Below, piece after piece: positions 6,001 to 9,000 of a DNA stretch of 35,130 nt. Each line of letters starts with the position of its first letter. Positions within the stretch are counted from its first letter, which is position 1. Made by a program: the position numbers. Origin of the DNA: a virus (Duplodnaviria > Heunggongvirae > Uroviricota > Caudoviricetes); IMG/VR virus record IMGVR_UViG_2740892229_000022. One strand, given 5' to 3'.

Positions 6001-9000
6001 GTCACCCCGGCTTCCCCTCCCGTATCCACCGCCATGGCCATCAGACGCATGCGCACATCCGGATCAGAAGCCAGCGGCCATGTTTTATGGAACACATCCG
6101 TCAGCAACAAATCCCAGTCCTCCGGATATGCCGCCGGATCAACCGGCAGACTTTCACCGTTGGGACTGCAGCGCAGTGAATGCCGGATGTTGTAGCGATC
6201 AACAATCCAGCGTTCCCCCTGCTCTCCGTATCCGGTGATCTGCACAACAAAACGGCGATTTTTACCGCCCTGTACGTCAACCGTTGCCTCAATAAAACGC
6301 ACACCATCCGGCACAGATCGCCGGGGAAACGGCTCGGCACGCTGTTCAAGCAGTTCACTTTTACGCTGTTCCGTGGCTGAACGGGGCAGATAGGGTCGTC
6401 CGATATCGGTGTTCACCACCGCTTTCAGGGTCTCTTCACTGCCGGTTCGCTCATACTCTTCTTCTGCCGCCAGCAGTTTAAAAATCAGTTGTTCCCAGGT
6501 CTGAAACGCCGCAGCTGGCCCCTCCATCCAAAATGACGCAATCCGGGAGTTTCGTGGCGTTCCGGTGATACTGCCGTCCGCCGCCGCCCGTTCACCTTCA
6601 CGAAGCCAGATCCCCTGGTTATTCAGTTCGCGTTTCTGCTCAGGGGCAATCAGCCCGCGACAATGCGGACACATCAGACGGGCAGCCTGACCGGCAGCCA
6701 CAAAATCCGGGTTATTCCGGTATCCGGTCATGTTATCCATCACCGGCTGAAAATATTCCCCGCAGTGCGGACACGGCCAGTACCACCGGCGGCGGTCTCC
6801 CCGGTTATACAGTGACATGATACCCGTTGTTGGCGGTGCCTCATGTGCGCCACCACAACGCCATTTGGTATCGGTGATATCCCGCCCCGGTGAACTCTCG
6901 ACCAGGGTCATCCCCGAGGACATAAAGGTGGTGGTACGCTTTGAGGCCAGTGTGAAGGCATCCCCTTCCCCGTCCACGTTTTCAGGGAAACGGTCATAAT
7001 CCGTCAGCGCCACACGACGGTAATCCGAAGAGGAAAAGACGGTGATCGACGGCCAGCCAATCTTCAGGAAGGAGCCGTCAAGAAACATTTTATCGTGGAC
7101 GTTGTTGTCATTACGGGAAGGACTGAGGCGCTTGCTGACCTCCGGACTGTGGCGAAACGTCCTGGAAAGACGCGTTCTGGAATGCTCACGCGCCTTCGTC
7201 TCAGTCATCTGCACCACCAGCATATCCGCCGGATCACAGATGATGCCGTACACAATCCAGCCATCAATCAGCCCTTCGGTTTTCCCGGTTCGCGCAGGTC
7301 CCACAAACACCACCGCGTCATATTCACGGGCTGATAATGTATTAATGGGGTCAATCATATAGGGCGTCAGCGATGACTCCCACGGACCGGAAGTATTGGC
7401 TCCCCGTGGAACCCGCATATAACGCCTGATGGCTTCCGCTACTGGTAACCGGCTGGGTGGGCGAAACAGCGAGGCCACTTCGCGCCAGATATCGGATGCG
7501 CGGCTATGGCTCTCGTTCACCTGATTCACATATCGGCCTCATCACAACAGTCAATGACTGCCTTTTCCAGTGTATCGCGGATCTCATCAACCACAATCTG
7601 TACTTCATTCAGTTGTGATGCGGTCCACCCCCTGTCCCTTTCCAGCCGGTCAGGCCAGGTTTCCAGTACCTGAACTATCGCTTTCACCACGACAGAAAAG
7701 GACCGCCTGACATCACTGACTGGCACAAGCTGACCAGTTTCCTGCTCAAATTTCAGTCGGTCACGTTCTGACTGGTACCATGCTTTACGCGCATGAGGAT
7801 CCATTTCCTTGTTATCTACAGGCAGAGGAGCTTTCATCAGCTCGGCAAGAATATCTGTCAGTCGGTACAGTTTGAGATTGCTCTCATGACCACCGGCTGG
7901 GCTTATGTTTTTTACCCGAGCCGCAACAGTCTGTCGATGAGCACCGGATAATGCGGCCAGTTGGGAAATATTCAGATGCAGATTTTTTAATTCACGATCC
8001 ATAACCCCCCCCCTGAAAATTATGTAAACACACACCAGTGATGAACAAAAAACAACCAGATTCGACACTAAAAATTTTTATTTTTCTATATATCAATAAC
8101 TTACAATGGTGGTGATGGTGCCATAAAAATCAAAAAATGCGCCTTTTTCCGCGCCGCCCGCCCCGTGTTCAGGCCCACCCCACCAGGAGGACCCGCAAAA
8201 TGATAATGGTTATCATTTGCAACAAAATCCAGTTTCTTCCACCATCGCACCGGACTGGCGACTATGAGGGGACAACGCCGCGCTCCGTTAACGCGGTAAA
8301 CCCCGGTGTGTATCGTTTTTGATTATCCCCGCACACTCGCGCAGAGGAGTCTCCCTGTCGGGCTGCGGTCTCTGTTAATGCAGGAATACGGCGACAATAC
8401 CGCGCATGGATAATAAGGTCGCTCAACACACTGGCTGTAATGCAGCGGATACCATGCGGCATTTAGCGGCATTCATCGTACACTCAACGGTTAGCTCTTC
8501 ATTCGTGGCATTCACCTGAAAGGTCCTGGAGTGTAATTGCGTACATTTACCACTGAACGAACCTTCAACAAGAACACGACCACGCTGCAAAATACGGAAC
8601 GGAATTGTTCCCTGAAAAGGCTTTACGGTTACCAGTAATTTCTTCATGCATTCTCCGGATAACAAAAATACTAGTTAATACACTGAGTGCGGATATATTC
8701 CTGCGCCCCTTCCAGCTGCTTCTGCATCATCATCAACCGTTCTCTGAGGATGAAATAATCCCGTTCAGCGGTGTCTGCCAGTCGGGGGCNNNNNNNNNNC
8801 GTCAGCAGGGAACAGGCCCGTTTAAGAGTCACATCAGCCTCCTGAAAATAAAAAAACCGCCGGAGCGGTTCATGATGGTTACAGGGTGAACAGGGTTATA
8901 TGAAAAAAACCGCATATTCTTTCTTTTTCGGTTCCGGGTTGAGGGACATCAGGGAGACCGCATTGAACAGCGCCATCAGCGGGTCAATTTTTCCCCGTCC

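Follow-up and report, generated by a model that had tools for sequence, protein, structure and literature searches.

The stretch of DNA analysed here, referred to as the window, is the 35,130-nucleotide Caudoviricetes sequence of IMG/VR record IMGVR_UViG_2740892229_000022, and our subject is a small open reading frame (ORF), here called ORF74, that lies between the lysis and packaging genes of a lambdoid prophage. ORF74 occupies 8423..8647 on the minus strand, with its ATG start at 8645-8647 and its TGA stop at 8423-8425; the frame is intact over 74 codons and encodes a protein of 74 amino acids (aa) and 8.2 kDa, which begins with MKKLLVTVKPFQGTIPF and ends in LQPVC. A Shine-Dalgarno-like GGAGA can be read at 8652..8656 (minus strand), 4 nt 5' of the ATG, and in diverged alleles of ORF74 the same position is held by the purine-rich counterparts GGAGG and GGGGG. 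The preliminary description of the window had proposed this ORF together with its GGAGA ribosome-binding site, and the sequence bore out both. The Rz gene ends 23 nt ahead of ORF74, with a TAG stop at 8671-8673 on the same strand. Its 3' end (8671..8789, minus; an i-spanin of the Phage_lysis family, annotated 'lysis protein' in the complete genome) is cut at 8790 by a linker of ten N.

On the other side of ORF74 follows a conserved non-coding segment at 8225..8407 (minus; 183 nt), which stands after the lysis cassette in many lambdoid prophages and is 95% identical to 13560-13742 of the window. The first packaging gene downstream is a DUF1441 (Nu1-like) small terminase gene at 7526..8002 (minus; PF07278, E 5.9e-49; a 158-aa form in the RefSeq annotation), and the next gene past it, at 5406-7529, encodes a GpA-type large terminase subunit (TerL). 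The cos site is presumed to lie between the DUF1441 gene and the conserved segment, at about 8003-8198.

To the right in the window, a second copy of this junction has a full-length Rz gene (13752-14219; PF03245, E 3e-47) and no ORF74. Alignment and repeat coordinates place the DNA that is extra relative to this empty allele at 8408..8671 (minus), 264 bp against 10 bp at 13743-13752, so that the net excess at the left-block junction is about 254 bp; the Rz 3' end at 8672-8789 is matched by the repeat finder to 13753-13870 at 91% identity. The excess had earlier been put at about 300 bp and assigned to the left block only: the extra DNA is real, but smaller than was stated. Its guanine-plus-cytosine (GC) content is 44.6%, compared with 54.7% for the whole left block or contig and 57.3% for TerL, and the GC content at third codon positions is 0.44 in the insert versus 0.60. 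The conserved segment was said to be present three times, and the repeat finder agrees, with an 86-nt core at 8228-8313, 12747-12832 (where an N gap cuts it) and 13563-13648. These post-lysis segments (8225-8407, 13560-13742 and 12747-12832) are 94-97% conserved though the prophages differ on both sides of them, and the conservation may simply be that of a recombination joint. An origin of the empty allele by deletion between short CAGTG repeats was considered and dropped, the similarity being too weak to argue from.

Escherichia and Salmonella hold relatives of the same length as ORF74 down to 56-60% identity, and remoter relatives were found in Xenorhabdus and Yersinia. Among five diverged alleles, the pairwise Nei-Gojobori ratio of nonsynonymous to synonymous substitution rates (dN/dS) is 0.19-0.53, with the N-terminal 56 codons most constrained and the C-terminal third more variable. 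The AlphaFold2 model, computed from a 23-sequence alignment, is confident (mean predicted local distance difference test score, pLDDT, 90.2; predicted template modelling score, pTM, 0.76) and all-beta, with six predicted strands and one short helix. No hydrophobic or membrane segment, signal peptide or lipobox was detected in the protein (maximum Kyte-Doolittle 19-residue mean 0.76), and its isoelectric point (pI) is 9.7, where those of its relatives are near 5. Altered alleles also occur, namely 64-aa and 71-aa forms (truncated or in-frame-deleted) and partial calls. Because relatives have kept its length, dN/dS is low, the AlphaFold2 model is confident and the ribosome-binding site is retained, ORF74 is, as judged from sequence and model, a real gene, and its predicted product is small, soluble and all-beta.

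When filled and empty junctions were compared across 5,426 complete E. coli genomes, a check that had been suggested at the outset, 1,189 of them had ORF74 DNA (at least 80% coverage of the ORF), with a maximum of six copies in one genome, and at least 1,413 had the empty junction, in which the Rz stop leads directly into the conserved segment. Both states also occur within the window. Among the listed genome matches with a feature annotated over ORF74, every one reads 'hypothetical protein', and the exact protein is found on at least 1,000 contigs of a large protein collection, where it is never named. A phage collection holds it in 26 records, most of which are H-19B or long-tailed converting phages of the Stx2c, Stx2a and Stx1a types, Stx being Shiga toxin; phages ASU11 and PPyecE_EH1910 carry an identical ORF74. 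The gene is not limited to Stx phages, and occurs for example in clinical isolates other than Shiga toxin-producing E. coli. Since filled and empty junctions are both common and are both seen in the window, and since the GC content deviates, ORF74 is by these sequence comparisons an optional cargo gene, dispensable and non-essential for the phage.

ORF74 is identical to RefSeq WP_000735655.1 ('hypothetical protein'). The profile and structure searches that had also been suggested yielded a family and no function from sequence or fold. ORF74 matches phrog_2571 (PHROGs v4, function unknown) with E 2.8e-28 and 99.9 bits, the match covering residues 1-73 on profile positions 100-172 of 291 and therefore the central domain only. 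The 280-aa E. coli protein P0074 matches the entire profile (E 2.9e-144), and its residues 95-165 correspond to the ORF74 domain, with 30-45% identity to the short forms. These alignments show ORF74 to be the stand-alone form of the phrog_2571 central domain, a domain that is embedded in the 280-aa form and elsewhere fused to other extensions. A HMMER scan of 1.84 billion representatives collected 48 relatives, including 72-82-aa proteins, C-terminal extensions and N-terminal fusions; every match of this profile search, and of a second, word-indexed search that used distant members, was unnamed or 'hypothetical', and no phrog_2571 member carries a known function. ORF74 has no match in Pfam or NCBIfam, PADLOC-DB gave nothing at E ≤ 0.1 for ORF74, the long form or the distant relatives, and the best hit of a PDB sequence-profile search with ORF74 had E 1.1. 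In Foldseek searches with the ORF74 model, the best E-values were 0.28 (PDB) and 0.075 (BFVD), with template modelling (TM) scores of 0.45-0.6 and none significant, and the predicted fold is assigned no further than a generic small beta-sandwich. A scan of genome contigs gave no confirmed relative, and a scan of viral contigs gave only near-identical copies, of no use for divergence analysis.

Three leads from these searches were discarded. The model of the 280-aa form was too poor to serve as a clue to function (pLDDT 62, pTM 0.33), and its Foldseek matches are meaningless. Matches to giant HYR_4C-repeat proteins are not homology, since they reflect a short repeated motif, C..TRTY.V.DA...ITV, in two proteins. 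A Phage_Tail_Tip hit in the fused relative P0077, at 18.6 bits, fell under the threshold of 22.

The window itself is a scaffold of draft contigs joined by linkers: it has eight runs of exactly ten N (at 8790, 11636, 12833, 13060, 13356, 14627, 17471 and 18253), several of them bordered by near-identical repeats of 100-180 nt (11522-11635 and 11647-11760, for instance, are a pair at 99%), a pattern often left when prophage repeats collapse in assembly. Because the window is made of joined contigs, gene order across the linkers cannot be trusted, and the three copies of the post-lysis segment, which the preliminary description had treated as sites on one molecule, are therefore contig fragments of different prophages of one genome. 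In blastn comparisons, one prophage of the complete chromosome of E. coli 2013C-4991 is matched at 99.99% by 18263-32696 and at 99.87% by 7292-8789; the contigs between 8789 and 18263 match that chromosome at 93-97% or not at all. In the 2013C-4991 prophage, the order on a single strand is Q, a DNA methyltransferase, three tRNAs, stx2A, the Stx2c B-subunit gene, a NanS-p-like esterase (DUF6645), DUF1378, DUF826, holin, lysozyme, Rz, the 74-aa gene WP_000735655.1, DUF1441 (Nu1-like) and the GpA-type large terminase. The sequence match thus makes it most likely that the left block continues the Stx2c prophage from which the right half of the window, its early and toxin region, derives. In that half an intact stx2A (319 aa) lies at 19235-20194 and a Stx2c-type B-subunit gene (89 aa; annotated Stx2c in 2013C-4991) at 18954-19223, both on the minus strand. 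The stretch 8800-13365, with an HNH, small terminase (TerS) and TerL packaging module, a DUF3950 gene and a TonB_C lipoprotein, is from other prophages.

Two side observations concern chimeric joins. At 17418-18539 (minus), an N linker connects two DUF1737-like segments, each the N-terminal part of a NanS-p-type esterase (MAFKHYDVVRA...), and a 125-aa database protein, P0002, consists of a DUF1737 domain fused to ORF74; the latter is probably a similar chimera of assembly or gene calling rather than a true fusion.

ORF74 was found on the late strand between lysis and packaging genes in every locus examined, with three exceptions: two short contigs without recognisable neighbours (L010 and L110) and the remote relative P0071. 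In some prophages it precedes DUF1441 or Nu1 with GpA, in others DUF3950, HNH, TerS and TerL, and at one locus it has a holin and M15-peptidase lysis module, with no gene called Rz, on its 5' side and an HK97-type head on its 3' side. Where packaging is of the HNH type, Rz lacks its usual stop and continues for ten codons, until its end overlaps the start of ORF74 as ATGA; this was checked in the sequence of locus L014 at 2725-2760 (NZ_CP062778.1), and L015 and L016 have equivalents. The preliminary description had spoken of an Rz-to-cos segment. The segment does follow Rz, but because it also stands directly after ORF74 in HNH/TerS/TerL-type prophages, it is a post-lysis rather than a cos-specific element and the earlier framing was too narrow; by sequence comparison, ORF74 travels with the end of the lysis cassette and not with cos.

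Consensus scans of the coding strand gave no sigma-70-like promoter in the window at 7900-8789 or in locus L001 at 3900-5900 (holin gene to ORF74), although such scans are crude and a weak or non-sigma-70 promoter could escape them. Around ORF74 there is no credible terminator, the sole terminator-like hit being a weak 5-bp stem inside the ORF. The conserved downstream segment has no Rfam match and no ORF and folds no better than its shuffles (z = -0.58). In the 2013C-4991 prophage everything from Q through stx2A and stx2cB, the lysis genes and ORF74 to the terminase is on one strand.

The junction that ORF74 fills holds other genes elsewhere. On another contig of the window, a TonB_C ORF at 12271-12612 (minus; 113 aa; PF03544, E 5.8e-15; lipoprotein-like N terminus) and a DUF3950 (YlcI/YnfO-like) gene at 11939-12139 (plus) stand between the segment copy at 12747-12832 and the HNH/TerS/TerL module, and represent the cargo with which another prophage fills this junction. 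In other phages the cargo there includes DUF4406 and Acb2-like genes. The long form P0074 is found in the order Rz, DUF4406, P0074, a 149-aa ORF and DUF1441/Nu1; of the more distant relatives, P0073 stands immediately before DUF1441, P0095 lies directly 3' of an Rz-sized gene and before Nu1, and P0071 is in an early or immunity region near a Ser/Thr kinase and ParDE. P0069 translationally abuts a 204-aa ORF and has as its immediate downstream neighbour an Acb2/Tad1-hairpin gene (PF24729, E 2.3e-17), close ahead of Nu1, in a cluster that also holds DUF4406 and an orphan N6/N4 methylase. Genes with this hairpin domain adjoin a distant ORF74 relative in three loci: L007 (5314-5598; E 2.3e-17 in our scan), L008 (3316-3600) and L003 (863-1147), the last two assigned from precomputed Pfam hits. 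In L007 and L008, which are metagenomic lambdoid contigs, they are immediately upstream of Nu1, with DUF4406 nearby. The pre-terminase slot may be a site for counter-defence cargo in some lambdoid phages.

We favour, with modest confidence, the reading that ORF74 is a genuine and dispensable cargo gene of the late operon at the 3' end of the lysis cassette in lambdoid prophages and, weakly, that it encodes a cytoplasmic module for binding in conflict. In lambda and the Stx phages, late transcription from pR' traverses the lysis genes and continues into those for packaging, and stx2 requires it for its expression. A Q-antiterminated late transcript would run from pR' through stx2, nanS-p, DUF1378, DUF826, holin, lysozyme, Rz and ORF74 across cos to the terminase genes. 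To judge from the anatomy of the locus, ORF74 would be the last cistron of this transcript before cos, because it is on the late strand, has no detected promoter or terminator of its own and is tightly spaced from Rz, and it would be translated from its own GGAGA site. With no transcription signals of its own and its position on the late strand, the protein would be made only after prophage induction or in lytic growth, when Shiga toxin and the lysis proteins are made as well. Its part there might be that of a cytoplasmic binding module in the interplay of phage and host or of phage and competitor, for example in counter-defence or host takeover. This is our best guess as to function, though itself of low probability, drawn from the modular use of the domain, its variable C-terminal part and the neighbours found in one distant subfamily. 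We think it unlikely that the small phage proteins with the phrog_2571 core form a new family whose binding target is a signalling molecule or a component of the host's immune or stress machinery. Were that so, the core would sit in a cargo slot elsewhere occupied by Acb2-like sponges and orphan methylases, and a protein that an induced Stx phage makes along with its toxin could bear on the hosts or co-resident prophages in which that phage is able to grow.

Several points weigh against this late-cargo and binding-module reading. The case for co-transcription consists only of absent consensus signals and gene order. No functional homologue was found in Pfam, NCBIfam, PADLOC, a PDB sequence search or Foldseek. 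The link to anti-defence comes from one distant subfamily at about 40% identity, and the E. coli ORF74 loci have no such neighbour. The net charge of the protein is not conserved (pI 9.7 versus about 5), so that no common electrostatic ligand is evident, and late expression is an unusual timing for a counter-defence protein.

ORF74 could instead be a classical moron or lysogenic-conversion gene, transcribed by itself from a repressed prophage and of benefit to the lysogen in the manner of lambda bor and lom. The preliminary description leaned this way, and part of the idea stands: the DNA is optional and extra between genes that are adjacent in related prophages, its GC content is atypically low, and the junction takes variable cargo, including the TonB_C lipoprotein gene on another prophage contig of the window. 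Yet promoter- and terminator-like signals are absent from its flanks (within the reach of the crude scans described above), it is on the late strand with Rz, which it follows at 23 nt or abuts or overlaps in its various alleles, and a product lacking signal peptide, lipobox and membrane segment is not a surface factor, in contrast to Bor and Lom. ORF74 is thus moron-like in the loose sense of 'more DNA', the classical self-transcribed moron is not supported, and we regard the latter as unlikely.

Less probable still is an accessory of the lysis cassette, translationally coupled to Rz, that modulates the spanin, endolysin, holin or lysis timing. ORF74 always comes directly after the lysis block, whatever the packaging module, and in the HNH-type allele of L014 its start overlaps the Rz stop. 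Against this, among prophages that have Rz and are otherwise similar, those without ORF74 are at least as numerous, it also occurs behind the different lysis module without a gene called Rz, its long form has a DUF4406 gene between itself and Rz, and P0071 lies away from lysis genes in an early or immunity region. The protein is, moreover, predicted to be cytoplasmic and soluble, whereas spanins act in the periplasm, and a search of ORF74 for features of lysis proteins found no membrane segment, signal, lipobox or muralytic Pfam domain.

A packaging or cos accessory that aids terminase at the adjacent cos is very improbable: ORF74 lies no more than about 450 bp from the presumed cos and directly precedes the small terminase gene, but at least three unrelated packaging or head modules accompany it, prophages with the same Nu1-like/GpA terminase type lack it, and its charge differs among relatives. 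A virion protein specific to a single type of head is likewise not supported, and overall a role as a component of lysis, packaging or the virion is not likely. That ORF74 is a spurious or decaying ORF without function, as its shortness, its lack of a known domain and the 64-aa, 71-aa and partial alleles might suggest, is scarcely credible in view of a dN/dS well below 1, a length and frame kept across 56-100% identity in Escherichia and Salmonella, the existence of remoter relatives in Xenorhabdus and Yersinia, a confidently predicted fold and a conserved ribosome-binding site.

The existence of ORF74 is not new, since it is very common and already in RefSeq and PHROGs; literature searches on the accession, the PHROG identifier and the Rz/cos context found no paper that mentions this gene. 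It is one more uncharacterised optional cargo gene at the known module junctions of lambdoid phages, and in that sense ordinary; it would become notable only with an experimental demonstration of a counter-defence or host-range function. Its practical value is nearer at hand. ORF74 marks the 3' end of the late stx-lysis operon in long-tailed Stx phages, and its presence or absence separates near-identical prophages that collapse in draft assemblies, as they do in the window. Carried by about one in five complete E. coli genomes and confidently folded, it would also be a cheap target for screens of accessory and counter-defence functions.

Among the closest known systems, the phrog_2571 long form P0074 occupies the same slot between Rz and DUF1441/Nu1 and shares the domain at 30-45% identity; ORF74 lacks its N-terminal helical region of about 95 aa and its C-terminal alpha/beta region of about 115 aa, the long form being modelled with low confidence. 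The best Foldseek matches of the ORF74 model, namely CBM36, CBM60, LecB-type lectins, C1q heads and HYR-like repeats, are non-significant (TM 0.45-0.56, E 0.28-1), and the HYR-like repeats give only a weak repeated profile match to a short motif. Like the Acb2 and Tad1 nucleotide sponges, ORF74 is a small, soluble phage accessory protein, and a distant relative is encoded immediately upstream of an Acb2/Tad1-hairpin gene; unlike them in sequence and fold (Pfam, PDB profile and Foldseek), it is related to them by neighbourhood only. Lambda bor likewise occupies the lysis/packaging junction; it is a lipoprotein gene of the opposite strand with a promoter of its own, and lysogens express it. ORF74 resembles bor and other junction morons as optional extra DNA of deviating base composition at the same module boundary, and differs from bor in its late strand, its lack of a detectable promoter or terminator and its soluble product. 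With the late cargo of Stx phages (stx2AB, nanS-p, DUF1378 and DUF826), it shares the strand, the Q-dependent late region and the character of a non-essential passenger; it differs in lying downstream rather than upstream of the lysis genes and in not being confined to Stx phages. In its mode of carriage, ORF74 most resembles these late-operon passengers of Stx phages, stx and nanS-p.

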